Shown one piece after another: positions 5,400-34,699 of a stretch of DNA of 45,022 bases (positions are counted from its first letter, which is position 1; every line of letters begins with the position of its first letter). The position numbers and the translations under genes are program-made. Origin of the DNA: an uncultured Alphaproteobacteria bacterium (lineage in GTDB: Bacteria > Pseudomonadota > Alphaproteobacteria > HIMB59 > GCA-002718135); assembly GCA_902619045.1 (NCBI GenBank), contig CACNCX010000003.1:1-45022 (forward strand). The letters are read 5' to 3'. The notes beneath the pieces were generated by a model that did not search any database, had not been told where the DNA came from, and saw only the letters and a program-made list of their open reading frames with translations.

Positions 5400-6947
5400 T
5401 TATTTTTTTAAATATTCTCTTAACTGATTTACCGATAGGACTTTTAACACAATTACTAATCCAAAATAAATAATTATAGATAAAAAGATCATCAGAAATA
5501 AAAGTGTTGAATTTAATAACACTGAATTACCACTTATATTTGCAAAGAATAGTCCATTTAATAGGTAGATTCCTGCAAATAATAGAAATGAACTTAGTAA
5601 AATTTTAATAGAATTCTTTACTAAAAGATCGTCAAATTTCATATGATTCCTAATAGCTAAAAAGAGGTACAGTAATAATGCATTTATCCATGCACTAATT
5701 GCTGTTGCAACAGCAATTCCCATTTCTCTCATTGATCCAATTAAAAGTAGCGATAACACAACATTACTAATCACACTGACAATAGATATATAGAGTGGTG
5801 TTTTAGTATCTTCTCTTGCAAAGTAACAGGAAACTAAAACTTTAATTATAATGTAAGCAGGTAGACCTATAGCAAAGTAACTTAATACTTTAGCAGTATA
5901 AAAAGTATCTTCTTTTACAAATGCACCTCGTTCAAATAAAATATGAATAATGGGTTCAGCTAAAATAAATAGTCCTAGGGCTGATGGTAAAGAAATTAAT
6001 AATGAAAATTCAATAGATCTATTTTGAATATTATTTGTTGTTTCTTGATCTGATTGTTTAATAGCCTTTGATAAACTTGGTAAAAGAACTATGCCAAGTG
6101 CTATTCCAAAGATGGCAAGTGGTAATTGGTTAAGACGATCCGCATAATAAATATGACTGATAGCACCCACTGGTAAAAAGGAGGCGATAATAGTGCCAAT
6201 AACAATGTTTAACTGAATAACACCTGAACCAACAACACCTGGTAAAAATAATTTGAAAAACTTTTTTAATTTTTCATTTAAAACTGGAAGGATAATACGT
6301 GGTCGATAAAAGTTTAAAACCGACCTGTATAAATATAGAAATTGTAACACTCCTCCTATTAATACACCATACGATAATGCGTGACCTGCAGTAGTTACAA
6401 ATGGTGTTAAAAAGAATAATGACAGAATAAAACTTATATTCAAAATGGCAGGAGCAAATGCACCAGCAGCGAAACGTTCATGAACATTATTAATTGAAGC
6501 AAAGTGAGCAGCTAAGGAAATAAAAATAATATAAGGGAAAATTATTTTTCCAAAATGCACAGCAAGTTCATAGGCTTCTTTATTATCGGTAAAACCTGGT
6601 GCTAAAACTTGAATGATATTATGCATTCCAAAGAAAAAAAGGATCGTTAAAACGACCGTAGCAAATAGTAACATGGAGGTTGTGTTTTCAACAAAATCAG
6701 AAGCTTCACGTTCATCTTTTGGATTGAGAACAACACCAGAGAAAACCGGGATTAATGCAGCACTGTATGCTCCTTCTGCTAGGACACGACGAAAGAAATT
6801 AGGAATACGAAATGCTACGAAGAATGCGTCAGCAATTACTGTCGATCCAAGATATCTTGCTATTAATATGTCACGAATAAAACCTAATACTCGACTTAAA
6901 AATGTATAGAAGCTGACAGTAAAGAATGATCTAAAAAGACTCTTCAT
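5400..6947 (-). CDS. murJ: Lipid II flippase MurJ (MviN)
   Basis: [34 protein letters not shown]; many TM segments. Confidence 0.96.
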
Positions 6948-7001
6948 ATGGTGGTTTTATAGTTTGGTAAGTGATTTGTATAAGTGAAATTTATGGCTTA
7001 A

Positions 7002-7685
7002 TTACGAGCCAAAACAATATCCTGCTGATCTCACGGTTCTTATAAAATCTTCTTTTACGTCATTATTTATGGCCTTTCGTAGTCTTCTTATATGAACATC
7101 AACTGTTCGAGGTTCTACATGGGCCTCATTTTTCCAAACATGATTAAGTAATTGTTCACGGCTAAAGACACGACCAATATTTTCCATAAAGAAAGCTAAT
7201 AAATTAAATTCTGTTGGACCAAGATGAAGAGTTTCTCCATCTCGTGATGCCGAGTGAGATACAAGATCAATTACTATTCCTTTATAAGTTAAAACTTCAT
7301 CTACAAACATTGGTCTAATTCGTCGAAGAACAGCTTTTACTCTTGCCACTAATTCGTTAACCGAAAAAGGTTTTGTTATGTAATCATCTGCTCCAGTTTC
7401 TAAGCCGCGAAGTTTATCTTCTTCTTCACCTTTTGCTGTTAACATTATGATAGGAATATTCTTATGTTCCTTATTTTTTCTAATTCTTCTACAAAGTTCA
7501 ATTCCTGATAGTTTAGGTAACATCCAATCAAGAATAATTATGTCAGGTGGTTTATATAATATTTTTTCTAAAGCAGTTTCACCGTCCGTTGCAGTATCTA
7601 TTTTATATCCTTCTTTGTTAAAATTAAATTTAAGAAGATCAAGTAATGCTTCTTCATCTTCGACGATAAGCATTTTTAGTTTCAT
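7002..7685 (-). CDS. phoB: Phosphate regulon response regulator PhoB
   Basis: Receiver (LDWMLP) plus winged helix (HLGPTEF, RTVDVHIRRLRK); directly after phoU. Confidence 0.95.
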   Translation of the reverse strand: MKLKMLIVEDEEALLDLLKFNFNKEGYKIDTATDGETALEKILYKPPDIIILDWMLPKLSGIELCRRIRKNKEHKNIPIIMLTAKGEEEDKLRGLETGADDYITKPFSVNELVARVKAVLRRIRPMFVDEVLTYKGIVIDLVSHSASRDGETLHLGPTEFNLLAFFMENIGRVFSREQLLNHVWKNEAHVEPRTVDVHIRRLRKAINNDVKEDFIRTVRSAGYCFGS

Positions 7686-7691
7686 GAATCT

Positions 7692-7725
7692 TTACTATTA
7701 AATTTTTGTTACAATTCTATTACAA
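7692..7725 (-). promoter_or_regulatory. Pho-box-type promoter of phoB (probably leaderless)
   Basis: Minus strand reads TTGTAAT-AGAA-TTGTAAC-N10-TAGTAA-N6-ATG. The 11-bp periodic heptamers resemble the PhoB half-site CTGTCAT. Confidence 0.7.
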
Positions 7726-7726
7726 T

Positions 7727-8437
7727 TTATTTTTTCTTTGGAAGAATTGCTTCCCAGGTTGGGTCTGGATTACCATCAAATAGGGGCTCACCAGAAACTG
7801 CATAATAAATATCTTCAGCTATATTTTGTACATAATCACCAATTCGCTCTAGGTCTTTAACCATATATAAAAGACTTGTACATGCTGTGATTCTTTTTGG
7901 TTCTTCCATCATGTAGGTTAATAGTTGTCTTAATATTCCAAGATATTCTTCATCAATTTGTCTATCCATTAACCAAACTTTTTTTGCGGCTTGATCTGAA
8001 AATTCTAAAAAAGCTTTTATTACTTCACTAATCATTATATTTACTTGTGCACCCATATTAATAATATCTCTCGAAGGTTTTTCTGGCAAAACTATTTCTG
8101 CTACTGCTACTCTTTTGGCAATATTTGTTGCATGATCTCCTATTCTTTCTAGATCTTTATTGATTTTAATTGCTGAAAAAATTGTTCGTAAGTCTGCAGC
8201 CATCGGTTGTCTTTTGCCAAGTATTTCAACTAAGCTTTGATCAAGAGTATTATATGCTTTATCAATTACATCATCGTTTTCTATAATTTTTTCTGCAAAT
8301 TCTGTATCTTTATCCTTTAAACATTGAAGTGAGTCTTTTAGTTGATTTTCAACTAAACTGCCCATATCAACAATATTATTTTTAATGTCTCTAATTTCTT
8401 CATCATATGATTTTACAATATGTCCTTCTTGTTTCAT
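7727..8437 (-). CDS. phoU: Phosphate signalling protein PhoU
   Basis: QPMAADLR, DLERIGDHATNIA and repeated DLERIGD. Confidence 0.95.
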   Translation of the reverse strand: MKQEGHIVKSYDEEIRDIKNNIVDMGSLVENQLKDSLQCLKDKDTEFAEKIIENDDVIDKAYNTLDQSLVEILGKRQPMAADLRTIFSAIKINKDLERIGDHATNIAKRVAVAEIVLPEKPSRDIINMGAQVNIMISEVIKAFLEFSDQAAKKVWLMDRQIDEEYLGILRQLLTYMMEEPKRITACTSLLYMVKDLERIGDYVQNIAEDIYYAVSGEPLFDGNPDPTWEAILPKKK

Positions 8438-9198
8438 TAACCAAATCTCCCTGTAATGTAATCCTGTGTTTTTGTATTATCAGGATTTGTAAAAATTTTG
8501 TTTGTCTCACCCGTTTCTATTAATTCTCCTAAATGGAAGAAACATGTTTTCTGCGAAACCCTGGCTGCCTGTTGCATAGAATGAGTTACTATAATAATTG
8601 TATAGTTTAATCTTAACTCATCAATTAATTCTTCTATAATAGCAGTTGCTATTGGATCTAAAGCAGAGCAAGGTTCATCCATTAGGATTATTTCAGGATT
8701 AACAGCAATTGCTCTTGCAATACATAATCGTTGTTGTTGACCGCCTGATAAACTTGTTCCAGGTTCATTTAATCGATCTTTTACTTCATCAAATAGACCT
8801 GCCTTTTTTAATGATGAATGTACAATTTCTTCTAATTCATTTTTTGAGTCAACTAAACCATGTATAGTTGGGCCATAAGCAACATTATCAAAAATAGATT
8901 TAGGAAAAGGATTTGGTTTTTGAAATACCATTCCAATTTTAGATCTTAGACTTACAACATCGGTTTTTTCACTAATAATTTCTTCGTTATCTACTTTTAT
9001 TGATCCCGATACTTTACATATTTCAATTAAATCATTCATTCTGTTTATACATCTTAAGAAAGTTGATTTACCACATCCTGAAGGACCGATTAATGCCGTA
9101 ACTTCTTTCTCCTTGATATCCATTGAGATTCCAAAAAGAGCTTGTTTGGATCCATAATATACATCTACACCATTTGCCAATATTTTAGAGTTACTCAT
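8437..9198 (-). CDS. pstB: Phosphate ABC transporter ATPase PstB
   Basis: [43 protein letters not shown]. Confidence 0.97.
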
Positions 9199-9201
9199 GT
9201 T

Positions 9202-10482
9202 TTACCACTTCCTTTCAAATCTATTTCTTAAGAACACTGCAATGGCATTCATCATAAACAAAAATATTAAAATTACCATTATTGCTGCGGCTGATTTTTC
9301 TTGAAAACCTCTTTCTGCACTTTCCACCCAAAGATATATTTGAACAGGTAGTGCTGCTGAAGGTTCTGTTAAACCAGTTGGAATATTAGGAATAAATGCA
9401 ATCATGCCAATCATTATTAGTGGTGCTGTTTCTCCTAATGCTTGTGCTAATCCAATAATAGTCCCTGTTAAAGTCCCTGGTAGTGCAAGGGGTACGACAT
9501 GATGAAATACCGCTTGTGTTTTTGTTGCTCCAACTGCAAGTGCTCCTTCTTTAATTGAAGGAGGAACAGCTTTCAATGAAGCTCGACAGGCAATGATAAT
9601 GGTTGGTAACGTCATTAAGGCTAATACGGACCCTCCAACTAACGGTGTACTCCTTGGAAGACCAAAAACATTAAGCAATACCCCCAACCCAAGTAGTCCA
9701 AAAACTATTGATGGGACTGCTGCTAGATTTGAAATATTTACTTCTATTAATTCAGTTATTCTATTTTTTGGAGCAAATTCCTCAAGATAAACAGACGCTC
9801 CTATAGCAATTGGAAAAGATAAAATAAAAACAGTAAAAAGAGTAAATAATGATCCCATAAATGAACCAGCTACACCAGCAATTTCAGGATGCCTTGAATC
9901 TGCTTTAGTAAAAAAGAAATTATTAAAAACTTGTTTAACTCTATTTTCTTCAACTAATTGATCAACATAACTTAATTGAATATCATTTAATTTTCTTCTA
10001 TCTTCTGGCACATCCCTTCTTGAATTACCTTTTAATAGTTGATCCACATCACTATGGGCGGTTACCCAAATTTGTTGCTTAGTATTAATAACTTCAGGAT
10101 TATCTAAGAAGTAGTCTTTAATTTCCTTATCTACATTTATAGAAAATAATTTTTTTACTAATTTAATATCTGATTTTGAGAGATCAGGGAAAAAATTTTC
10201 AATAGCCTGTTTTTTAACTCTAAAAAATTTTCCTTTTTCCATATCTTCATCTGAAGAGTCAGGTGTTAGTTTTAAAACCTCTTGATTATAATCAACTTCT
10301 AGGAGAACAATTGTTTTTTGAAAAGCAGTGTATCCTTTAGAAAATATTGTATACAAAAGAAAAACTAAAACTGCTAAAGATAAACACATAGCTGTAAAGC
10401 CGTAATACTTAAATCGCATATCTTCTAAGCTTCTCTTTTTTCTCAAAGAAACAATTTTTTCTTTAGCAATAGAATTATTCAT
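9202..10482 (-). CDS. pstA: Phosphate ABC transporter permease PstA (long alphaproteobacterial form)
   Basis: NLAAVPSIVFGLLG, QALGETAPL, C-terminal LRNRFERKW. Confidence 0.95.
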   Translation of the reverse strand: MNNSIAKEKIVSLRKKRSLEDMRFKYYGFTAMCLSLAVLVFLLYTIFSKGYTAFQKTIVLLEVDYNQEVLKLTPDSSDEDMEKGKFFRVKKQAIENFFPDLSKSDIKLVKKLFSINVDKEIKDYFLDNPEVINTKQQIWVTAHSDVDQLLKGNSRRDVPEDRRKLNDIQLSYVDQLVEENRVKQVFNNFFFTKADSRHPEIAGVAGSFMGSLFTLFTVFILSFPIAIGASVYLEEFAPKNRITELIEVNISNLAAVPSIVFGLLGLGVLLNVFGLPRSTPLVGGSVLALMTLPTIIIACRASLKAVPPSIKEGALAVGATKTQAVFHHVVPLALPGTLTGTIIGLAQALGETAPLIMIGMIAFIPNIPTGLTEPSAALPVQIYLWVESAERGFQEKSAAAIMVILIFLFMMNAIAVFLRNRFERKW

Positions 10483-11848
10483 AACGCTCCCTGTATCTCT
10501 TTACTATTTGTAGAGCTATAATGTTAAGAAATAATGTAATAACAAATAAAACTAATCCTAAAGCAAATGCTGATAATGTTCTTGGGTTATCAAATTCTTG
10601 ATCACCTATTAAGGCCACAACAATTTGAACTGTAACTGTTGTTACGTTTTCAAAAGGATTGCCCGTAAGATTGGGGGCTGTGCCTGCTGCAACTACAACA
10701 ATCATAGTCTCCCCTATCGCTCTGGATATTGCTAATAAAAATGCTCCTACAATTCCAGGTAAAGCTGCTGGTAAAATTACTTTTTTAATAGTTTCTGCTT
10801 TATTAGCGCCAATACCAAGAGATGCTTCCCTTAGATTTTGTGGGACAGAGTTTATTACATCATCAGATAAAGAAGAAATAAAAGGAATAATCATAACCCC
10901 CATTACCATGCCGGCTGCAAGAGCGCTTGTTGGTGAAGCATCAATTCCAATTGATTGTCCAAATGCTTTAACGAAAGGTGCAACACTAACAAAAGCAAAG
11001 AACCCGTAAACTATTGTTGGTATCCCTGCCAAAATTTCGAGAAGAGGTTTAACTATTTTTCTAACTCTTTGACTTGCGTATTCTGCTAAATAAATTGCTG
11101 TTAATAATCCAAGAGGTGCCGCTACACACATGGCTACTACCATTACTAAAAATGTTCCAGCAAATATTGGTACTGCACCAAAGGATCCCTCTGCAGCTGT
11201 TTGACCTTCTCTAATTGGAATAAAAGGATACCACTCAGTACTAAATAAAAATTCGAATATTGATACTTCTGCAAAAAAGCGAAGGCTTTCAAATATTAGT
11301 GAAAAAACTATTCCTATTGTAGTGAAAATAGCAACAGATGAACAAAATATAAGTATATATTGAATATATTTTTCAATTGTATGTTGAGCATGAAATTCTG
11401 GTTTTAATTTTTGTGAAGCGTATAAGGCTCCAAGTAACATTATAATGATTATTGAGGTATAAAAAGATATTTGACTTATTTGTCTTAAGGAAGAATAATG
11501 AGATGCAGCATTAATTATTTCTATAGATTTACCATCAGCAAAAGAGGGGTTATTAGCAACATTTCTAATCTCTGCTAACAATAATCCTTCGTTGTAAACT
11601 GCGCCCTCAATATATTCAAAGTTACTAATAACTATGTTTTGAATAATCTGTTCTTGAAAAATAGCCCATGAAAAATAAACAATTAGCGCAGGAAACAAAC
11701 ACCACATTAAAACGTATTGTGCGTAATAATTGGGAAGAGATTTGCTTTTCGTACCTTGTTTTTTAGAGTTTAATTTAATTCTTGATCTTCCGTATATAAA
11801 GGATGAGAAAATTCCGACTGCAATTAAAACTAAAGACCAAAAAAACAT
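10475..11848 (-). CDS. pstC: Phosphate ABC transporter permease PstC
   Basis: LAGIPTIVYGFF, SRAIGETMIV, YRERYE. Confidence 0.95.
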   Translation of the reverse strand: MFFWSLVLIAVGIFSSFIYGRSRIKLNSKKQGTKSKSLPNYYAQYVLMWCLFPALIVYFSWAIFQEQIIQNIVISNFEYIEGAVYNEGLLLAEIRNVANNPSFADGKSIEIINAASHYSSLRQISQISFYTSIIIIMLLGALYASQKLKPEFHAQHTIEKYIQYILIFCSSVAIFTTIGIVFSLIFESLRFFAEVSIFEFLFSTEWYPFIPIREGQTAAEGSFGAVPIFAGTFLVMVVAMCVAAPLGLLTAIYLAEYASQRVRKIVKPLLEILAGIPTIVYGFFAFVSVAPFVKAFGQSIGIDASPTSALAAGMVMGVMIIPFISSLSDDVINSVPQNLREASLGIGANKAETIKKVILPAALPGIVGAFLLAISRAIGETMIVVVAAGTAPNLTGNPFENVTTVTVQIVVALIGDQEFDNPRTLSAFALGLVLFVITLFLNIIALQIVKRYRERYE

Positions 11849-14556: not shown

Positions 14557-15369
14557 ATGAAATTTGAAACAAATAAAAAATTTTACCGCACAATTTGGAT
14601 TTCGGATACCCATCTAGGAACTAGTGGCTGTAAAAGCAACATGCTTTTAGAATTCTTAGAAGAAACAGATTCAGAATATTTATTTTTAGTAGGCGACATT
14701 GTTGATGGATGGCGCATGCGTAAGAAAATGTATTGGTCACAAGAACATAATGACGTTGTTCAAAAAGTTTTAAAGAAAGCGAAAAACGGAACTAGGGTAG
14801 TGCTTATTCCAGGAAATCATGATGAGGTATTAAAAGATTTTACAAATTTTTCTTTTGGAGAAATTTCTATCAAAAATGAAGATACGCATCAATTAGCTGA
14901 TGGAAGGAAAGTACTGATTACACACGGAGATGAATTTGATGCTGTGATAATTAATGCGAGGTGGTTAGCCAAAGTGGGATCAGCACTTTATGAATATTTA
15001 CTAAAGTTAAATAATGTATTTAATTTTATTCGACGAAAGATGGGCTTGTCTTACTGGTCACTGTCTCAATATTTAAAAAAGAAAACAAAGCATGCAACTA
15101 ACTTTATTAGTAATTTTGAGTTTGCTGTATCTGATAGAGCTAGAAGAGAAAATGCCGATGTTGTTGTATGTGGGCATATACATAGACCAGAAATAAAAGA
15201 ATTAAATGGTGTTCTCTATTGTAATGATGGTGACTGGATTGAAAGTTGTACAGCACTTGTTGAAGATGAAATTGGCAATTTATCAATTCTTAATTGGCCC
15301 GAAGAAAGAGAAAAATTAAAATTAATTTCTTTAGAAGAAAGACGAAAAATAAAAGAGGATGCAGCCTAA
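14557..15369 (+). CDS. plcP: PlcP-type phospholipase C (LpxH-like metallophosphoesterase), copy 1
   Basis: WISDTHLG, LVGDIVDGW, PGNHDE, HGDEFD, CGHIH, NDGDWIESCTAL; next to a GT4 glycosyltransferase in a pho island. Confidence 0.8.
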   Translation: MKFETNKKFYRTIWISDTHLGTSGCKSNMLLEFLEETDSEYLFLVGDIVDGWRMRKKMYWSQEHNDVVQKVLKKAKNGTRVVLIPGNHDEVLKDFTNFSFGEISIKNEDTHQLADGRKVLITHGDEFDAVIINARWLAKVGSALYEYLLKLNNVFNFIRRKMGLSYWSLSQYLKKKTKHATNFISNFEFAVSDRARRENADVVVCGHIHRPEIKELNGVLYCNDGDWIESCTALVEDEIGNLSILNWPEEREKLKLISLEERRKIKEDAA

Positions 15370-16360
15370 AAAAATCGCGTTAATTAGTGATGCGTGGGTT
15401 CCTCAGGTAAATGGCGTAGTTACGACATTTCAAAGCGTTATACCTATTCTAGAAAAAAAAGGTTTTGAAATTAAAATATTACATCCTGAGATGTTTAATA
15501 ATTTTAGTTATCCTAGGTACAAAGAAATAAAAATTTCTTACAATACTAAAAAAGTTACTGAAAAATTTTTTAAAGAATTTAATCCAGATATTGTTCATAT
15601 AATGACTGAAGGTCCAGTAGGTTTTGCTGGTCGTAAGTACTGTCTTAAAAATAAACTACAATACACTTCTTCCTTTCACACCCGTTTTCCTGATTATATT
15701 AAACAAAGAGCTTTTATCCCAAAGAGATTTACATACTCCATATTAAGAAGACTACATAGTGATTCAGAAAGAGTTCTTGTTCCATCAGTTTCAATGCTAA
15801 ATGAGTTAAAAAAATATGATTTTAAAAATTTAGTAGTTTGGAATAGAGGTGTTGATACAGAATTATTTAATCCAAATAAAAGAGACACAAACAGTAAAGA
15901 TAGACAACTGACTTATGTTGGAAGAGTAGCAATTGAAAAAAATATTGAAGAATTTTTAAAACTTAAAGGAAATTATAATAAAATAGTTGTGGGGGATGGT
16001 CCTGAATTAGAAAAATATACTAATAAGTATCCTGAAGTAAATTTTGTTGGTTTAAAAACCGGAGAAGAATTAGCAAAGTATTATGCAAACGCAGATGTGT
16101 TTGTATTTCCTTCTAAAACAGACACTTTAGGAAATGTAATACTTGAAGCATTGGCTAGTGGAACACCAGTTGCTGCATATCCAGTAACTGGGCCTATAGA
16201 TGTATTAACAGATGAGAAGATTAACACTTTAGATAATGACTTATTACAATCAATTAAAAAAGCGCTTAAAGTAAAAAGGGTTGATTGTAGAAATTTTACA
16301 CTTAATTTAACATGGGATAAATGCGTGAAAGAATTTTTAGAATACATGGTAAACGTCTAG
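15359..16360 (+). CDS. GT4 glycosyltransferase (Agt-like glycolipid synthase), copy 1
   Basis: SDAWVPQVNGVV, TEGPVG, FHTRFPDY, FVFPSKTDTLGNVILEALASGTPV. The plcP-agt pairing is established in P-starvation lipid remodelling. Confidence 0.85.
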   Translation: MQPKKIALISDAWVPQVNGVVTTFQSVIPILEKKGFEIKILHPEMFNNFSYPRYKEIKISYNTKKVTEKFFKEFNPDIVHIMTEGPVGFAGRKYCLKNKLQYTSSFHTRFPDYIKQRAFIPKRFTYSILRRLHSDSERVLVPSVSMLNELKKYDFKNLVVWNRGVDTELFNPNKRDTNSKDRQLTYVGRVAIEKNIEEFLKLKGNYNKIVVGDGPELEKYTNKYPEVNFVGLKTGEELAKYYANADVFVFPSKTDTLGNVILEALASGTPVAAYPVTGPIDVLTDEKINTLDNDLLQSIKKALKVKRVDCRNFTLNLTWDKCVKEFLEYMVNV

Positions 16361-18490: not shown

Positions 18491-20590
18491 ATGTTAAAAA
18501 AAAATACCGCTTATAACTATGCAAACAGGGAATTGTCTTGGCTAAAATTCAATGAAAGAGTCTTAAGTCAGACATCTGATAGTAAAATTCCACTTTTAGA
18601 AAGGGTTAGATTTTTATCAATAGCATTCTCTAATTTAGATGAATTTTTTATGGTTAGAGTAGCAGGATTGAATGTTCAAAAATTTTCACGAAATAAAAGT
18701 TTTGATGGATTAACACCACAACAACAACTCAAGCTGATAGATAAAGAAACATCGAAGATGATTTCAAATATAAAATCAATATGGATAGATTTACTAAGAG
18801 AGCTTTCAGAAAACAAAATCCATATAGATGTAGAAAAAACACTGAAAACAAAAGATAAAACATTTATTAAAAATTATTTAGAAGAAAATAATTGGGGGGT
18901 TTTAACGCCAATTATTATTGATCCATCTCACCCATTTCCTTTTATACCAAATAAAGAAACAACCTTAGTATGTCGTTTAATGAATAATAAAAAAACTTTT
19001 TATGGAATACTAAGAGTGCCAGAGGGATTAGAAAAATTTATTAAATTACCTGGTAAAAAAACACGTTTTGTATCTATGGAGACAGCCCTACTTATTTCTT
19101 TAAAAGAAATTTTCCAGTGTGATAGGGTTTTGGATAAAGGTGTTTTTAGACCAATTAGGAATAGTGAATTAGAATTAGGGGGTGAAGGAGAAGATTTATT
19201 TTTAGTATTTCAAAAAGCTATTTTTGAGAGAAGAAGACAAGAGGTAATAAGAATTGATTTTGATGAAAGTATATCTAGTCACTTAATTAAATTCATAAAT
19301 AAAAAACTTAACTATAAGGATGTAAATACATATAAACTGCCAATACCCGTTAATCTTTCGAGTATAGAGTCAATTTTTTTGAAAGATTTTAAAAAATTAT
19401 TTTTTCCAAAATTTAAGGTACGATTTCCTGAAAGAATTAAAGATTTTAAAAATGATTATTTTAAAGCTATAGCAAATAAAGATATTGTTATTCATCACCC
19501 TTTTGAATCTTTTGAAGTAGTGACGCAGTTTATTGATCAAGCTGCAGATGATCCAAAAGTCTTATCAATAAAACATACTTTATATCGAACTACTGATGAC
19601 TCACCAATAGAAGCAAGTTTAGTTAGAGCAGCACAAAAAGGAAAATTAGTAACTGTCATTATAGAGTTGCAAGCACGTTTTGATGAAGAGCGTAACTTAA
19701 AATGGGCAAAAGAATTAGAATTAGCTGGAGCGCAAGTTGTTTTTGGCAATATTGATATGAAAACTCATGCAAAAATTACACTTGTAACAAGGAAGCAAAT
19801 GAATTCTGTTGTAAATTACGCACATTATGGAACAGGTAATTATCACCCGAGAAATGCAAGAGTTTATATGGATTTATCTTACTTCACCTGTGACAAAACA
19901 TTAACAAATGATGCTGCAAAAATGTTTAATTATTTAACTAGTTATTCTGAACCAACAACAATAAAAAAAATAGTATATTCTCCAATAACTGCAAGAAACA
20001 AATTAAATGAACTAATTAGAAATGAAATTACAAATGCTGGAAAAAATAAACCATCTGGAATAGTATGTAAGTGTAATGCTCTTGTTGATAAACAAATTAT
20101 TGATGAATTTTATAAAGCATCTCAAAAAAATGTAAAAATTGAATTGTTGATAAGAGGAATTTGCTCTCTAATACCTGGTAAAGAAAATCTATCAGAAAAT
20201 ATAGTTGTTAAAAGCATAATTGGTCGTTTTTTAGAACATACGAGAATATATTGTTTTTATAATGGTCATAAATTCCCTCATAGAAAAAATATCTTGTTTA
20301 TTTCTTCTGCCGATTTAATGCAAAGAAATCTAGATAGGCGGGTTGAAACATTTATTCCTATTGAAAATGAAACTGTACATGAACAAATATTAAATCAGAT
20401 CTTAATTGCCAGTATGACAGATAATACAAATTCTTGGCAAATGTTAAGTAATGGCAATTATCAGAAAAAAGAAATATCAAGCAAAGAGAAAAAATTTTCC
20501 TCTCACAATTTTTTTATCAAAAATCCAAGCTTGTCTGGGAGGGGTTCAGCAAAACTCAAATCTAGAGCTAAGTCTAATTTAAAAATTTGA
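18491..20590 (+). CDS. ppk1: Polyphosphate kinase 1
   Basis: NRELSWLKFNERVL, SNLDEFFMVRVAGL, ELQARFDEERN, KTHAK, GTGNY, GRFLEH, SADLMQRNLDRRVE. Confidence 0.96.
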   Translation: MLKKNTAYNYANRELSWLKFNERVLSQTSDSKIPLLERVRFLSIAFSNLDEFFMVRVAGLNVQKFSRNKSFDGLTPQQQLKLIDKETSKMISNIKSIWIDLLRELSENKIHIDVEKTLKTKDKTFIKNYLEENNWGVLTPIIIDPSHPFPFIPNKETTLVCRLMNNKKTFYGILRVPEGLEKFIKLPGKKTRFVSMETALLISLKEIFQCDRVLDKGVFRPIRNSELELGGEGEDLFLVFQKAIFERRRQEVIRIDFDESISSHLIKFINKKLNYKDVNTYKLPIPVNLSSIESIFLKDFKKLFFPKFKVRFPERIKDFKNDYFKAIANKDIVIHHPFESFEVVTQFIDQAADDPKVLSIKHTLYRTTDDSPIEASLVRAAQKGKLVTVIIELQARFDEERNLKWAKELELAGAQVVFGNIDMKTHAKITLVTRKQMNSVVNYAHYGTGNYHPRNARVYMDLSYFTCDKTLTNDAAKMFNYLTSYSEPTTIKKIVYSPITARNKLNELIRNEITNAGKNKPSGIVCKCNALVDKQIIDEFYKASQKNVKIELLIRGICSLIPGKENLSENIVVKSIIGRFLEHTRIYCFYNGHKFPHRKNILFISSADLMQRNLDRRVETFIPIENETVHEQILNQILIASMTDNTNSWQMLSNGNYQKKEISSKEKKFSSHNFFIKNPSLSGRGSAKLKSRAKSNLKI

Positions 20591-20593
20591 AAA

Positions 20594-20655
20594 TAGAATT
20601 TAATCCCACTCACAATAATTGGACATAAGCAGGAAGAAATAATACTGCGAGTGGT
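20594..20655 (-). ncRNA. Candidate PhoB-dependent small RNA, copy 1
   Basis: ACCACUCGCAGUAUUAUUUCUUCCUGCUUAUGUCCAAUUAUUGUGAGUGG hairpin. Upstream is ATTTAAT-N4-TATTAAC-N4-CTGTAAA-N10-TAATTA-N6 leading to the first base. The U-tract is weaker than in copy 2. Confidence 0.45.
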
Positions 20656-20796
20656 AAGATGTAATTAAATTTTATTTTTTACAGACGTGTTAATAGAATA
20701 TTAAATTTTTATAAATTAAACTAATTTTTTAATTTATTGGTTTTCAAATAAATTTTTTAGTTCCTTCAATTTTTGAAAATTGAATCTCTTACTTCT
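20600..20796. repeat. Direct repeat, copy 1 (partner 23610-23807)
   Basis: Aligns at offset 3010 with about 26 substitutions and one indel over ~196 bp (~86% identity, counted by hand). Confidence 0.93.
20734..20796 (-). pseudogene. Frameshifted 3' remnant of arsC
   Basis: Reads EVRDSIF, then a 1-nt deletion, then KLKELKNLFENQ*, matching the C-terminus REVRDSIFDKLKELKNLFEN* of arsC at 23747-24166. Confidence 0.85.
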
Positions 20797-20816: not shown

Positions 20817-21812
20817 TTAATTTTTTGCATTTACAACATTTGATAGAAATTGATTTGCACATTTATCCCAAGTAAATTGCATTGCAAATTTTCTACAATC
20901 TTTTCTATCAATCTTTAAGGCTTTATTAAGTGAGTTTTCAATATTATTATCAAGGCTATCAATTAATGAGTTTTTTAAAATATCTTTAGGACCTGTTACT
21001 GGGTAAGCAGCCACTGGTGTGCCAGAGGCTAAAGACTCTAAAATTACATTTCCAAATGTATCTGTTTTGGATGGGAATACCAATGCTTCAGCATTTGCAT
21101 AATAGTTTGCTAGATCTAGACCTTTTTTCATCCCAACGAAAGACACATATGGATATTTATTTTGTAATCGTTGCTTTTCTGGACCATCTCCAACAACAAT
21201 TTTATGCATCTTAGTTCTTATTTCTAAAAACGCTTCGATGTTTTTTTCTAATGAAACCCTACCAATGTAAACAATATACTTTTTCATTCCCTTTTTTCTT
21301 TTTAAAGGATTAAATAATTCAGTATTAACTCCCCTTGACCAAATTTTAAGATTTTGAAATTGATATTTAGTTAATTCGTTACGCATAGATATTGTTGGGA
21401 CCAATACATTACATGCATTTTTATGAAAATTTTTTAAAAAAGAGTACCCAATTATTTTTGGTATCATTATTCTTTGCTCTATATATTCTGGAAATCTCGT
21501 ATGAAAAGAGGTTGTATATCTCAACTTATTATTCTCACAGAATTTTTTCCCCGCAATTCCAACTGGTCCTTCAGTGGCAATATGTATAACATCTGGATCA
21601 TAATCACCAAAAAATTTTTCTGTTATTTTTTTTGTATTAATTGCTATTTTTATTTCCTTATACCAAGGATAACTAAAATTAGTAAACATCATTGGGTGGA
21701 GTACTTCAATTTGATACTTTTGTTTTAAAAATGGATTAATATGTTGGTATGTATTTACCACACCATTAACTTGGGGAAGCCAAGCATCGGTAATGATCGC
21801 TAATTTTTTCAC
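20817..21812 (-). CDS. GT4 glycosyltransferase (Agt-like), copy 2
   Basis: TDAWLPQVNGVV, TEGPVG, FHTRFPEY, FPSKTDTFGNVILESLASGTPV; paralogue of 15359-16360. Confidence 0.85.
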   Translation of the reverse strand: MKKLAIITDAWLPQVNGVVNTYQHINPFLKQKYQIEVLHPMMFTNFSYPWYKEIKIAINTKKITEKFFGDYDPDVIHIATEGPVGIAGKKFCENNKLRYTTSFHTRFPEYIEQRIMIPKIIGYSFLKNFHKNACNVLVPTISMRNELTKYQFQNLKIWSRGVNTELFNPLKRKKGMKKYIVYIGRVSLEKNIEAFLEIRTKMHKIVVGDGPEKQRLQNKYPYVSFVGMKKGLDLANYYANAEALVFPSKTDTFGNVILESLASGTPVAAYPVTGPKDILKNSLIDSLDNNIENSLNKALKIDRKDCRKFAMQFTWDKCANQFLSNVVNAKN

Positions 21813-22615
21813 ACTAATACACTTTCTGCTAGTTTGTTATGTTTATGTTGAAAAATTTTTTCTCTTTCAATTGACCAGTCAATAAGGGATAATTGTCCCT
21901 CATTATTTTCCACTAGCGCAGAACAACTCTCAACCCAATCACCATCATTGCAATATAAAACTCCATTTAATTTTTTTATAATGGGCTTATGAATATGGCC
22001 GCACACAACAACATCAGCATTTGCTCTTTTAGCACTATCAGATACGGCAAACTCAAAGTTAGAAATAAAATTCGTGGCTCTTTTTGTTTGATGTTTGAGA
22101 AATTGAGATAATGACCAATAAGATAGACCTAGTTTTCTTCTGACAAAATTTAGATAGTTATTCAACTTTAATATAAATTCGTATAGAGATGACCCAATAC
22201 TTGCCAGCCATTTAGCGTTTAATATAACTGCATCAAATTCATCACCATGTAAAACAAGGGCATTTCTTCCATCAGCTAATTTGTGTGTAAACTTATTTTT
22301 TATTGATATATTCCCTAGTGAAAAACTTGTGTAACTTTTCACAAGTTCGTCATGATTACCTGGGATAAATATTACTTTTGTACCTTTTCTTGCTTTACGC
22401 AAAATCTTCTGGATAATGTCATTATGAGTTTGATGCCAATAAATTTTTTTTTTCATTCTCCATGCATCAATAATATCGCCAACTAAAAATAAATATTTTG
22501 AATCTGTTGATCTCAAAAATTCAAGAAGCATTTCACTCTTGCTATTTTCTGTTCCTAGATGAAGATCAGATATCCATATAGTTCTATAATATGAAACTGA
22601 TTGCTGATCTTTCAT
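21809..22615 (-). CDS. plcP: PlcP-type phospholipase C, copy 2
   Basis: WISDLHLG, PGNHDE, HGDEFDAV, CGHIH, NDGDWVESCSAL; paralogue of 14557-15369. Confidence 0.8.
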   Translation of the reverse strand: MKDQQSVSYYRTIWISDLHLGTENSKSEMLLEFLRSTDSKYLFLVGDIIDAWRMKKKIYWHQTHNDIIQKILRKARKGTKVIFIPGNHDELVKSYTSFSLGNISIKNKFTHKLADGRNALVLHGDEFDAVILNAKWLASIGSSLYEFILKLNNYLNFVRRKLGLSYWSLSQFLKHQTKRATNFISNFEFAVSDSAKRANADVVVCGHIHKPIIKKLNGVLYCNDGDWVESCSALVENNEGQLSLIDWSIEREKIFQHKHNKLAESVLV

Positions 22616-22626
22616 TTTATTAATAA

Positions 22627-22660
22627 ATAATAGAAAGAATTTGTTAAAATTTTATTTCAA
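22627..22660 (-). promoter_or_regulatory. Pho-box-type promoter of plcP copy 2
   Basis: Minus strand reads TTGAAAT-AAAA-TTTTAAC-N10-TATTAT. Confidence 0.55.
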
Positions 22661-22692
22661 TTACATTAACTAAATTTTTTTTTACAGAAGTA

Positions 22693-23535
22693 TTAATTAA
22701 ATATTGAGTTTTTATTACTTGGATCTAATCTATAAGTGCTATTCCTTAAAAATTTTGTAATCTCTATAAGATTGCCAATTTCTTTTATGGTTTCAAAGGG
22801 TATTCTTTGTCCAATATGAACATCAATTTTTTTTCCCATTCTTCTTTTAAGTTCATATATCATTAAAGAATATCGAAAGACTTGCCCAATTTTATCAGCA
22901 ACATGAAAAAGTTCGCTATTTTGTCCTTCAAAAAAAATTGGGAGGACAGGTGATTGAGTTTTCATTATTATTTTTGAAGTAAATTGTTTCCATTCACGAT
23001 CTATTGCTTTGATTCCTTTTTTTAATTTTGGTTTCGTTGAAACTGATCCTGATGGAAAAATGATTAGTGCCCCATTATTTCTTAAGTGTTCTTCGCATTC
23101 TTTACGTGCAGCGATATTATTTATTAAAGCATTTCTATTTTTTGAAAAATCAAGAGGAATAATTTTATTCTTAATAAGATCTGCTCCTTGTAAAACTTTA
23201 TGCGTAATAATTTTGTAATCTTGTCTAATTTTACTAATTAAAGAGCATATTGTAAGACCATCAGCTATTCCAAATGCATGGTTAGCGATTACTACAAGTT
23301 TGCCATTTTTAGGAATATTACTTTTAGAATGATAATGTGTCTGAACACGGAGACCTAATCTTTCAATTGCATCATGCCAAAAATTCTCTGGAGGTAAATT
23401 TTCTCTTAAATAATCCTCATACAACTTACGTAACTTAATTTTACCCGTTCCCAATTCGGTTAATTGAATAATAATCTTTCCAACAGGATTAACTTCGGAG
23501 TTAGAAAAGGTAAGCGCTGGTTTATTAATTTTCAT
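22693..23535 (-). CDS. Lysophospholipid/glycerolipid acyltransferase (PlsC superfamily)
   Basis: HxxxxD motif ANHAFGIADG, IIFPSGSVS and VLPIFFEGQNS. Confidence 0.8.
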   Translation of the reverse strand: MKINKPALTFSNSEVNPVGKIIIQLTELGTGKIKLRKLYEDYLRENLPPENFWHDAIERLGLRVQTHYHSKSNIPKNGKLVVIANHAFGIADGLTICSLISKIRQDYKIITHKVLQGADLIKNKIIPLDFSKNRNALINNIAARKECEEHLRNNGALIIFPSGSVSTKPKLKKGIKAIDREWKQFTSKIIMKTQSPVLPIFFEGQNSELFHVADKIGQVFRYSLMIYELKRRMGKKIDVHIGQRIPFETIKEIGNLIEITKFLRNSTYRLDPSNKNSIFN

Positions 23536-23584: not shown

Positions 23585-23603
23585 TACTCGAAAAAGGAGA
23601 AAT

Positions 23604-23665
23604 AAAAAATTAATCCCACTCACAATTATTGGTAATTAGCAGGAGGAAATAATACTGTGAGTGGT
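23604..23665 (-). ncRNA. Candidate PhoB-dependent small RNA, copy 2
   Basis: ACCACUCACAGUAUUAUUUCCUCCUGCUAAUUACCAAUAAUUGUGAGUGGGAUUAAUUUUUU: 9+6 bp stem, CCUCCU in the loop, U-tract. Upstream is ATTTAAT-N4-CATTAAT-N4-CTGTAAA-N10-TAAATG-N6. Confidence 0.55.
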
Positions 23666-23807
23666 AAGAAGCATTTAAATTTTATTGTTTACAGATAGAT
23701 TAATGGAATATTAAATTTTTATAAATTTAATTAATTTTTAACTTCATTAATTCTCAAATAAATTTTTTAGTTCTTTCAATTTATCAAAAATTGAATCTCT
23801 TACTTCT
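23610..23807. repeat. Direct repeat, copy 2 (includes the 3' end of intact arsC)
   Basis: Partner of 20600-20796. Confidence 0.93.
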
Positions 23808-24445: not shown

Positions 24446-24474
24446 TATTAATCAAATTGTAACAAAAATTTAAC
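24446..24474 (+). promoter_or_regulatory. Pho-box-like repeats upstream of DUF47-pit
   Basis: TATTAAT-CAAA-TTGTAAC-AAAA-ATTTAAC. The TTGTAACAAAA unit is identical to the one upstream of phoB. Confidence 0.6.
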
Positions 24475-33364: not shown

Positions 33365-34618
33365 TTACATAAGATCGTTTATTTCTTCCATCATTTCTTC
33401 TTGGAGATCACCCATATCATCAGCGTCGCCTGTAGCAATTTCTTCTGTGTAATCATAGATTACCTGTGTAACAGCTAATCCATTTTCTCCAGGATATGCA
33501 AACCAATCTGCAAGAAGTGGAAGTTGTTCAACTGCAGTAAGTTTATTAGGGTTTTTACTATAGAAATCACCTAATAATTCATTCGCTGCTTTGTTTGGTG
33601 GAACATATCCAGTTGTTTCAGCAACTAATGCAGCACCGATACCTGATGTAATGAACTTTAAGAAAGTCCATGCAGCATCAACTCTTGCTGGATCATCAGA
33701 TGTAGACACTAACATTGCAGCGTTTCCACCTGCTGGTAATCTTGCTGGTGTTCCATTGTTAACTCCAGCCATTCCAGGGAATGGTGCAGTTTTTAAAACA
33801 AAGTCTGCCTTTGCAGCATTAACTGAACCCAAGCTTGAAGTAGACCAGAACATCATACCAATAGTACCTGCGTTAAACGCAGCTTGACCATCAGCAATTG
33901 AATAGTTTGGCATATTACATCCGCTCATGATTGCTTTCATTTGCTCTAACGTTGCAAGTCCTGCATCACCACCCATATTTACAGCTCCATCTTTAACCAT
34001 TGGAACATTCTGAGTGTGCATTAATGCTTGGTGGAACCAGTTACCTGTGATGTTCCAACCAAAGTATAGAGTTCCTTTACCTGCTGCTTCCAATTTATTA
34101 CATGCTGCAATAACTTCGTCCCAGTTAGTTGGAATACTATTTACACCTGCTTCAGCTAATAAATCCATGTTATAATATCCAACTGGCGTTGATACAGAAA
34201 ATGGTAATCCATAAACTTCACCACCAAATGTTGAAAGACTTAACATAGCAGAATGGTAACCATCTTTTTCAAAAGCAGCTTCTTTTGCAATAAATGGCTC
34301 TAAAGACTTAGCAATACCTTTGTCAACTAGAGGTGCTTGTCTGTTAAGACCTTGCATTGTTACATCTGGTAAATTACCTGAAGTAGACTCTCTGAAGATT
34401 GTTGCAGTTGCATCCTCATAGTTTTCATAAGTTGCTCTAAATTTAACTTGAATATCTGGATGTGCTTTTTCAAACTCTGGCATAATAGCTTGAAAAGTTA
34501 CATCGAATAATCCTGAATAAGGATAAGCTACTTCTATTTCAATAGACTTAGCTGAATTAACAGAACCATAAAAACCAAAAGCTAATACGGCAGCCAATCC
34601 TGTAATTAATTTTTTCAT
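33365..34618 (-). CDS. ABC transporter substrate-binding protein (UgpB-like, family 1)
   Basis: Signal peptide, LPDV, YGLPFSVSTPVGYYNMDL, PTNWDE, TTGYVP; GGAGG SD. Confidence 0.85.
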   Translation of the reverse strand: MKKLITGLAAVLAFGFYGSVNSAKSIEIEVAYPYSGLFDVTFQAIMPEFEKAHPDIQVKFRATYENYEDATATIFRESTSGNLPDVTMQGLNRQAPLVDKGIAKSLEPFIAKEAAFEKDGYHSAMLSLSTFGGEVYGLPFSVSTPVGYYNMDLLAEAGVNSIPTNWDEVIAACNKLEAAGKGTLYFGWNITGNWFHQALMHTQNVPMVKDGAVNMGGDAGLATLEQMKAIMSGCNMPNYSIADGQAAFNAGTIGMMFWSTSSLGSVNAAKADFVLKTAPFPGMAGVNNGTPARLPAGGNAAMLVSTSDDPARVDAAWTFLKFITSGIGAALVAETTGYVPPNKAANELLGDFYSKNPNKLTAVEQLPLLADWFAYPGENGLAVTQVIYDYTEEIATGDADDMGDLQEEMMEEINDLM

Positions 34619-34654: not shown

Positions 34655-34699
34655 CACGTAGCCTCAAAGGGTTACAATTTTATTACGAAAATATTACTA
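34655..34699 (-). promoter_or_regulatory. Triple Pho-box promoter of the substrate-binding gene
   Basis: Minus strand reads TAGTAAT-ATTT-TCGTAAT-AAAA-TTGTAAC-N10-TACGTG. Confidence 0.72.

Follow-up and report, generated by a model that had tools for sequence, protein, structure and literature searches.

A conserved arsC-sense RNA hairpin with an anti-Shine-Dalgarno-type loop, carried in the repeats that flank a lipid cassette in a HIMB59 phosphate island

The window, as the whole 45,022-nt stretch of analysed DNA is called here, comes from an uncultured alphaproteobacterium of the HIMB59 lineage. Behind an arsC-like gene it carries a conserved RNA hairpin with a long, pyrimidine-rich loop of the anti-Shine-Dalgarno (anti-SD) type. 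We give about even weight to the reading that this is the 3'-end, terminator-type hairpin of the DUF6552-arsC operon, with an anti-SD loop that is itself selected. The reading is drawn from the strand-specific structure, the selected loop, the fixed place behind arsC and the terminator-like appearance of the hairpin in a divergent genome (G006). A second copy of the hairpin belongs to a direct repeat, the two arms of which enclose an inserted lipid cassette.

The window is a phosphate island that holds phoR-pstSCAB-phoU-phoB, ppx, a SixA-like phosphatase gene, ppk1 and phoU-div/pho4, and the element was correctly placed by the original prediction inside a phosphate-stress island. The operon carrying the hairpin at its 3' end consists of a DUF6552 gene (24390-24163) and a gene for an ArsC-like low-molecular-weight phosphatase (24166-23747), both on the minus strand, while ppk1 (18491..20590, plus strand) is convergent with the element. 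Flexible phosphate islands of HIMB59 have been described in a study whose main text lists SET, GlpF, Ppx, SixA, Ppk, a low-molecular-weight phosphatase, LpxH-like and RfaG-like proteins, PhoRB and Pst (PMC10734472). The gene set of the window is equal to this one, and fixed-position variation of such islands was ascribed there to homologous recombination. The same main text makes no mention of small RNAs, non-coding RNA or Pho boxes, has repeats only in its reference list and uses the term intergenic only for a spacer-length statistic. Searches of the literature on Pelagibacter and PhoB small RNAs and on Pho boxes likewise listed nothing on the element.

The upstream copy (copy 1) forms a stem-loop at 23616..23664 of the minus strand, 82 nt 3' of the arsC-like stop and on the arsC-sense strand. 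Its 11-bp stem (arms 23664-23654 and 23626-23616) closes a 27-nt loop (23653-23627) with CCUCCU at 23646-23641, and is followed by a U-rich tail (23598..23615, minus strand) in which a T6 run (23609-23604) begins 6 nt past the stem, after GATTAA. Before the hairpin lie three 11-bp-periodic heptamers that form a putative Pho box (23688..23716, minus strand; 23716-23710, 23705-23699 and 23694-23688), and candidate -10 elements at 23672..23684 of the same strand (TAAATG at 23677-23672 and an alternative TAAAAT at 23684-23679). It had been proposed that this arrangement marks a PhoB-activated small RNA (sRNA), and each of its parts was found where predicted: read on the minus strand, the heptamers are followed by 10 nt, TAAATG, 6 nt, the A at 23665, the hairpin and the T-run. 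The second copy, with hairpin arms at 20654-20644 and 20616-20606 and CUUCCU in its loop (minus strand), keeps the same spacing at an offset of 3010 nt, with no indel across 20594-20706. Its single outer-stem change was confirmed as a G-U pair on the minus strand only. The differences between the copies had been said to fall mostly between the heptamers and in the 3' half of the loop; they also affect heptamer 2 and the -10 element that had been proposed.

The surroundings of the two copies had been exchanged in the earlier description, which placed only the convergent end of ppk1 downstream of copy 1. It is copy 2 that abuts ppk1, with 15 nt between the end of its hairpin and the ppk1 stop (20590). 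Copy 1 is followed by an acyltransferase gene (280 aa, start 23535) that begins 69 nt after its T-run, and the argument that a 5' leader was unlikely with nothing downstream rested on the wrong copy.

The extent given to the element had also been too short, and the structure that encloses it had been missed. Each copy corresponds to one arm of a ~217-nt direct repeat that reaches into arsC and brackets a three-gene cassette, the arms lying 3010 nt apart with 83% identity (199 nt ungapped). Each arm comprises the 3' ~60 nt of the arsC-like gene and the whole arsC/ppk1 intergenic region. The upstream arm (23591..23807, minus strand) runs from the last ~60 nt of the arsC-like gene through the 82-nt spacer and the hairpin into the tail; the downstream arm (20581..20796, minus strand) contains a dead arsC 3' fragment, which sits right after the stop of a glycosyltransferase gene, followed by the spacer, the copy 2 hairpin and the tail. 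The cassette between the arms (20817..23535, minus strand) encodes an OlsF/GlsA-like acyltransferase (23535-22693), a PlcP/LpxH-like metallophosphoesterase (22615-21809) and a GT4 glycosyltransferase (21812-20817), all on the minus strand and all with NCBIfam scores below the curated cut-off, which makes each name a statement of likeness. A second, paralogous PlcP-like/GT4 pair was observed at 14557-16360 (plus strand), beside SET-domain and aquaporin-type genes; its proteins are 70% and 61% identical to those of the cassette, and it also occurs in genomes with the empty site.

Related loci were mapped in 19 of the 20 single-copy genomes and in 20 of the 26 two-copy genomes described below, giving 39 loci. 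Seventeen are empty sites, which consist of arsC, the element and convergent ppk1 and which lack the cassette; two hold the acyltransferase gene only, and 20 carry the full cassette like the window. One element was found in each acyltransferase-only locus and two in the full-cassette loci. Single-copy elements are mosaics of the two arms, in that their arsC end and spacer resemble upstream copies (91-93%), and their box, hairpin and tail resemble downstream copies (91-97%). This is the pattern expected of one crossover between homologous segments, and either a circular donor that integrated or a deletion between the two repeats could have produced it. The repeat architecture and the mosaics together mark the two-copy state as a recombination footprint, and the view of two sRNA copies arisen by gene duplication gives way to that of repeat arms around a lipid cassette. 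Comparison of the loci shows the repeats to be the footprint of cassette gain or loss by homologous recombination. Earlier work on the islands, as presented in its main text, inferred homologous recombination only from missing hallmarks of mobile elements (PMC10734472). The repeats provide a sequence-level footprint of a sub-cassette for phosphorus-free lipids entering or leaving a flexible phosphate island, with empty, partial and full states all sampled, and are a modest but concrete addition to the picture of island variation.

The fold of the hairpin was evaluated on both strands. In the arsC sense, copy 1 folded at -15.1 kcal/mol (z -3.3) and copy 2 at -16.7 kcal/mol (z -4.0), and shuffled sequences folded as well in 3 of 200 and 1 of 200 cases, respectively. 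Over all sequence types the arsC-sense energies ranged from -15.1 to -17.1 kcal/mol (z -3.3 to -4.3), against -10.3 to -15.4 kcal/mol (z -1.65 to -3.3) in the ppk1 sense. Of the four types for which both strands were folded, three gave a weaker structure in the ppk1 sense, among them G006 (-10.3 against -17.0 kcal/mol; z -1.8 against -4.3) and the single-copy type (-12.4 against -17.1 kcal/mol; z -1.65 against -3.65), while the two strands of copy 1 were equal. Among 20 distinct variants of the main genus, 3 of the 12 stem pairs vary, all on one side only and all remaining G-U or U-G, and none changes on both sides. These wobble pairs fit the arsC-sense strand alone and become A-C mismatches on the plus strand. 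The stem is also the best-preserved part of the repeat: identity between the copy types is 93-96% in the stems and 74-88% in every other segment, the tails of the upstream and downstream types sharing 74%.

A more distant comparison was provided by G006, a divergent orthologous empty site at which ppk1 and arsC stand at 75% and 68% amino-acid identity, respectively. Its spacer cannot be aligned, and a hairpin occupies the equivalent place. The stem differs from that of the main type by two fully compensatory pair changes as well as by wobble-compatible single changes. Once G006 is included, 2 of the 12 pairs have changes on both sides and 4 on one side, and 95% of the cells in the alignment pair; none of 500 shuffles reached the observed covariation, a result carried by this one divergent sequence. 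The strand-specific wobbles and the compensatory changes bear out the predicted conserved minus-strand RNA hairpin, and establish its structure, strand and conservation at the level of sequence comparison. The G006 loop retains UUCCUCCU despite the diverged spacer, which points to a conserved single-stranded seed. The pyrimidine-rich anti-SD loop that had been proposed is thereby seen to persist across an otherwise diverged spacer, and the loop itself is probably under selection. The two loops had been suggested to serve different targets; the C-to-U variant that separates CCUCCU from CUUCCU would still pair with G.

To describe the distribution of the element, two covariance models (R1 and R2) were run on 111 genomes of the family and 147 genomes of the order. 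The element was present in 46 of the 111 family genomes, of which 26 carry it twice and 20 once (by covariance model, one antisense match being discounted), and additionally in G006. The genomes that bear it are the same set as those that bear ppk1, which was found in 47 of 110 genomes; ppk1 was not found in five element-free genomes that are 89-92% complete. A copy of the element overlaps the 3' end of arsC in all 39 mapped loci and in the window, and a copy abuts the ppk1 stop in every locus with ppk1 as the following gene. No other site was detected in the genome of the window or in the 111 family and 147 order genomes, and six weak covariance-model matches (E 0.002-0.05) keep the stem in no case. 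In the sister family, the gene next to ppk1 is co-directional and the hairpin is absent. A pattern scan of metagenomes for the loop and the 3' arm returned at least 117 stretches; R2 matched 0 of the 80 loci listed at E up to 0.01, so the scan matches are regarded as chance, with no new variants among those listed. A weak DNA match of contig C9 to the promoter part lies inside an open reading frame (ORF) and is likewise attributed to chance.

Parts of the stretch are present, as assembled contigs, in 18 RNA runs, four of which were compared with the stretch; such contigs show neither ends nor strands nor levels. The arsC gene and the cassette genes are covered by contigs from RNA libraries, and one contig carries the join of the empty site. 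An RNA contig of 813 nt spans 23639-22851 and thus takes in the loop, the T-run and the acyltransferase gene. A non-genomic T-run of 24 nt is attached to the 22851 end, next to a stretch that is A-rich in the minus-sense RNA, which fits oligo-dT priming on minus-sense RNA. As this contig crosses the T-run of copy 1, termination at copy 1 would be partial at best.

Rho-independent terminators are among the structures closest to the element, which departs from them in several respects. Situated behind a stop codon, its stem of 11-12 bp with 5 G-C pairs has a folding energy of -15 to -17 kcal/mol, and like bidirectional terminators it sets a GC-rich stem in AT-rich DNA between two stops, at a fixed position where arsC and ppk1 end. 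The G006 stem has an A10 run on one side and a U8 run on the other, the latter directly after the stem in the arsC sense. However, its 27-nt loop is longer than the 3-8 nt customary in terminators and has a conserved sequence, only one strand folds strongly, and most variants have a poor or displaced U-run, which is interrupted in the single-copy and downstream types and displaced 6 nt from the stem in the upstream type. Among 76 strong intergenic hairpins in the genome, 60 have loops below 15 nt. A simple consensus terminator scan did not call the element hairpin, which is atypical as a terminator in its loop length and poor U-run.

Under the favoured 3'-end reading, the hairpin would end or stabilise arsC-sense RNAs as a 3'-end structure, and the downstream copy would have the equivalent role for transcripts of the cassette. 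The stem would at the same time present the selected anti-SD loop as a single strand, and the loop could pair with ribosome-binding sites, either within the 3' untranslated region (UTR) or as a released short RNA. Both termination and anti-SD action are what the features of the hairpin suggest. The spacer of ~155 nt argues for a function, since it has been kept in a clade whose median intergenic spacer is 2-3 bp according to the main text of the island study (PMC10734472). In a clade with such spacers and very few regulators, a non-coding stretch of this length with a selected loop is a good place to seek RNA-level control of the phosphate response.

Related RNAs are known from other bacteria. 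The icaR 3' UTR of Staphylococcus carries an anti-SD motif, and AbcR and CcsR/cuckoo are alphaproteobacterial sRNAs with CU-rich loops. In Bacillus, PhoS is a phosphate-induced sRNA located in the phoPR 3' UTR (PMC11522486). The element resembles the PhoS and icaR type in lying behind a phosphate-stress gene as a terminator-type hairpin with an exposed anti-SD-type loop; it differs in that the duplex with the start of its own operon, at the DUF6552 gene, is unremarkable at -13.3 kcal/mol. Pairing of the loop with this start was considered and rejected, as the energy falls to -6.8 kcal/mol in G006 and is not conserved. What the element shares with AbcR and CcsR/cuckoo is an alphaproteobacterial host and a stable hairpin with a CCUCCU-type loop, but it is a single hairpin instead of a tandem and occupies one locus. 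The suggested Rfam comparison with AbcR, cuckoo/CcsR and other families gave no match at gathering score anywhere in the window, and at E up to 10 the best score was 16.7 bits, for an unrelated family on the other strand. The hairpin element is an undescribed member among the 3'-UTR and terminator-type RNAs that are known elsewhere.

A free-standing small RNA is possible, and is the strongest competitor of the 3'-end reading, although we consider it only about half as probable. It would be an independent PhoB-activated transcript of ~62 nt that starts near 23665 (20655 for copy 2), ends at the U-run and acts in trans through its anti-SD loop. A seed sequence would be consistent with the selection on the loop, and in the empty-site genomes only the convergent end of ppk1 lies downstream. 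A weak hint comes from the RNA contig, which stops 26 nt inside the predicted start, and from the lower depths of contigs at the arsC 3' end. The target side offers less: a duplex scan of 931 start regions, based on crude gene starts, returned generic GGAGG sites only, of the kind found at genes with a strong SD, and no gene of the phosphate island stood out among them. A search for Hfq in five genomes, of which three are at least 90% complete, was negative, with control genomes matching as expected, and this also separates the element from AbcR and CcsR/cuckoo.

The case for an sRNA promoter depends on the heptamers. A candidate motif, TGTAAC-N5-TTTAAY, occurs as identical or near-identical 17-mers before phoB, before phoU-div/pho4 and, on another contig, before a UgpB-like binding-protein gene; the corresponding arrays (7697-7724, minus strand, and 24447-24474, plus strand, in the window; 19698-19725, plus strand, on contig C12 of genome G000) represent a candidate Pho box of the clade. 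The array at phoB ends only 12 nt before the annotated ATG, and the start codon or the promoter layout is unclear there. Searched as three hexamers with up to 2 mismatches, the motif gave 16 intergenic sites in the genome, 8 of them in the window, which include both copies of the element (2 mismatches each) and others located before phoB, phoU-div/pho4, the PlcP-like gene and a binding-protein gene. The last two sites lie at 22643-22670 (minus strand), before the cassette PlcP-like gene, and at 34671-34698 (minus strand), before a solute-binding-protein gene (33365-34618). The intergenic count was 15 against 5.9 +/- 2.1 in shuffles, for a motif that was partly defined from the island sites in a genome of 71% A+T, which weakens the support that the heptamers lend to an sRNA. 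The heptamer box resembles the phosphate-gene motif in sequence and matches it moderately.

Conservation of the box is divided. All main-genus variants retain the box with its spacing, in agreement with an sRNA promoter, whereas the G006 spacer has the hairpin and lacks the box. Upstream and downstream copy types share 79% identity in the box, compared with 88% in the dead arsC fragment. What had been predicted as a Pho box amounts to a 2-mismatch match to a locally derived motif; it is missing from G006 and shows no preferential conservation. The proposed -10 element occurs as TAAATG, TAATTA and TAAATA, all without the usual final T. The 10-nt spacing between box and TAAATG is present; TAAAAT, the better -10 candidate, is only 3 nt from the box and forms a block that is invariant in 34 of 34 distinct aligned sequences.

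A composite view receives slightly less of our confidence than the free-standing sRNA and appears rather unlikely. It holds that the element is an Hfq-independent anti-SD sRNA of phosphorus starvation, made from its own PhoB promoter or from the arsC 3' UTR, and that the ~217-nt unit serves additionally as a homology arm of the cassette. If this were true, the streamlined clade would gain its first described riboregulator, and carriers of the cassette would express two seed variants, CCUCCU and CUUCCU.

The position of copy 1 before the cassette makes a 5' leader or attenuator of the acyltransferase-PlcP-GT4 operon conceivable, in which the copy 1 hairpin and its U-run would tune read-through; we judge this improbable. 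Pho boxes have been reported upstream of plcP, and lipid remodelling by PlcP and Agt is known (PMC4796936), and the 813-nt RNA contig joins 23639 to the acyltransferase coding region. Against a leader, the hairpin is older than the cassette, with nothing downstream of it at the empty sites and in G006. The cassette has a Pho-box-like repeat of its own, TTTAAC-N5-TTTAAC (23583-23567, minus strand), which is followed after 4 nt by TAAAAT (23562-23557); this box lies downstream of the hairpin and is a better one than the heptamers. The acyltransferase gene keeps this layout of box and TAAAAT at locus L061, where an operon for an ABC transporter places the hairpin 4.4 kb away. The loop, moreover, has no complement in the acyltransferase start region (-2.5 kcal/mol).

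Least probable of all is a role in the ppk1 sense or at the DNA level, as a ppk1 terminator, a tiny ORF behind AGGAGG or a site of recombination or protein binding: the hairpin does lie just past the ppk1 stop, G006 has a U10 run after the hairpin on the plus strand too, and the cassette and ABC-operon insertions are all directly 3' of the hairpin, but the wobbles become mismatches on that strand, the fold is weak there in three of four types (z -1.65 to -1.93; copy 1, -3.3), copy 2 has no plus-strand GTG start and the ORF length varies, no integrase or transposase was found within the inserts, and the repeat boundaries are consistent with plain homology arms. Small ORFs through the hairpin were rejected on either strand, as their start codons are not kept between the copy types.

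Further variation was seen within the island. An ORF of 476 aa lies between the acyltransferase and PlcP-like genes in 4 of the 20 full-cassette loci, and a fifth (L061) holds a similar ORF of 470 aa and, between the hairpin and the acyltransferase gene, the four-gene ABC operon. This operon is UgpBAEC-like and follows the hairpin directly on the opposite strand; the two inserts span 6177-10318 and 11525-12937 of L061. The copies of the 470-476-aa ORF in L061 and L057 (8368-9798) gave no Pfam match, and that of L061 no NCBIfam match. The phoU-div/pho4 pair is absent from L057 (at ~11585-11627), L059, L060 and L061, where the DUF6552 gene adjoins a tyrosine-phosphatase-like gene, which constitutes another presence/absence polymorphism within the island. 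The two acyltransferase-only loci, L038 (genome G106) and L039 (genome G041), are near-identical and come from different genera; the ppk1 match of G106 is broken by stop codons, and a recent transfer, a pseudogene or a problem of binning or assembly could account for this. Two contigs from the RNA runs (X3 and X4) carry a near-identical ppk1 followed, past the stop (window 20591), by a different sequence with a short-loop GC hairpin, which indicates that another version of the island closes ppk1 with an ordinary terminator and not with this element.
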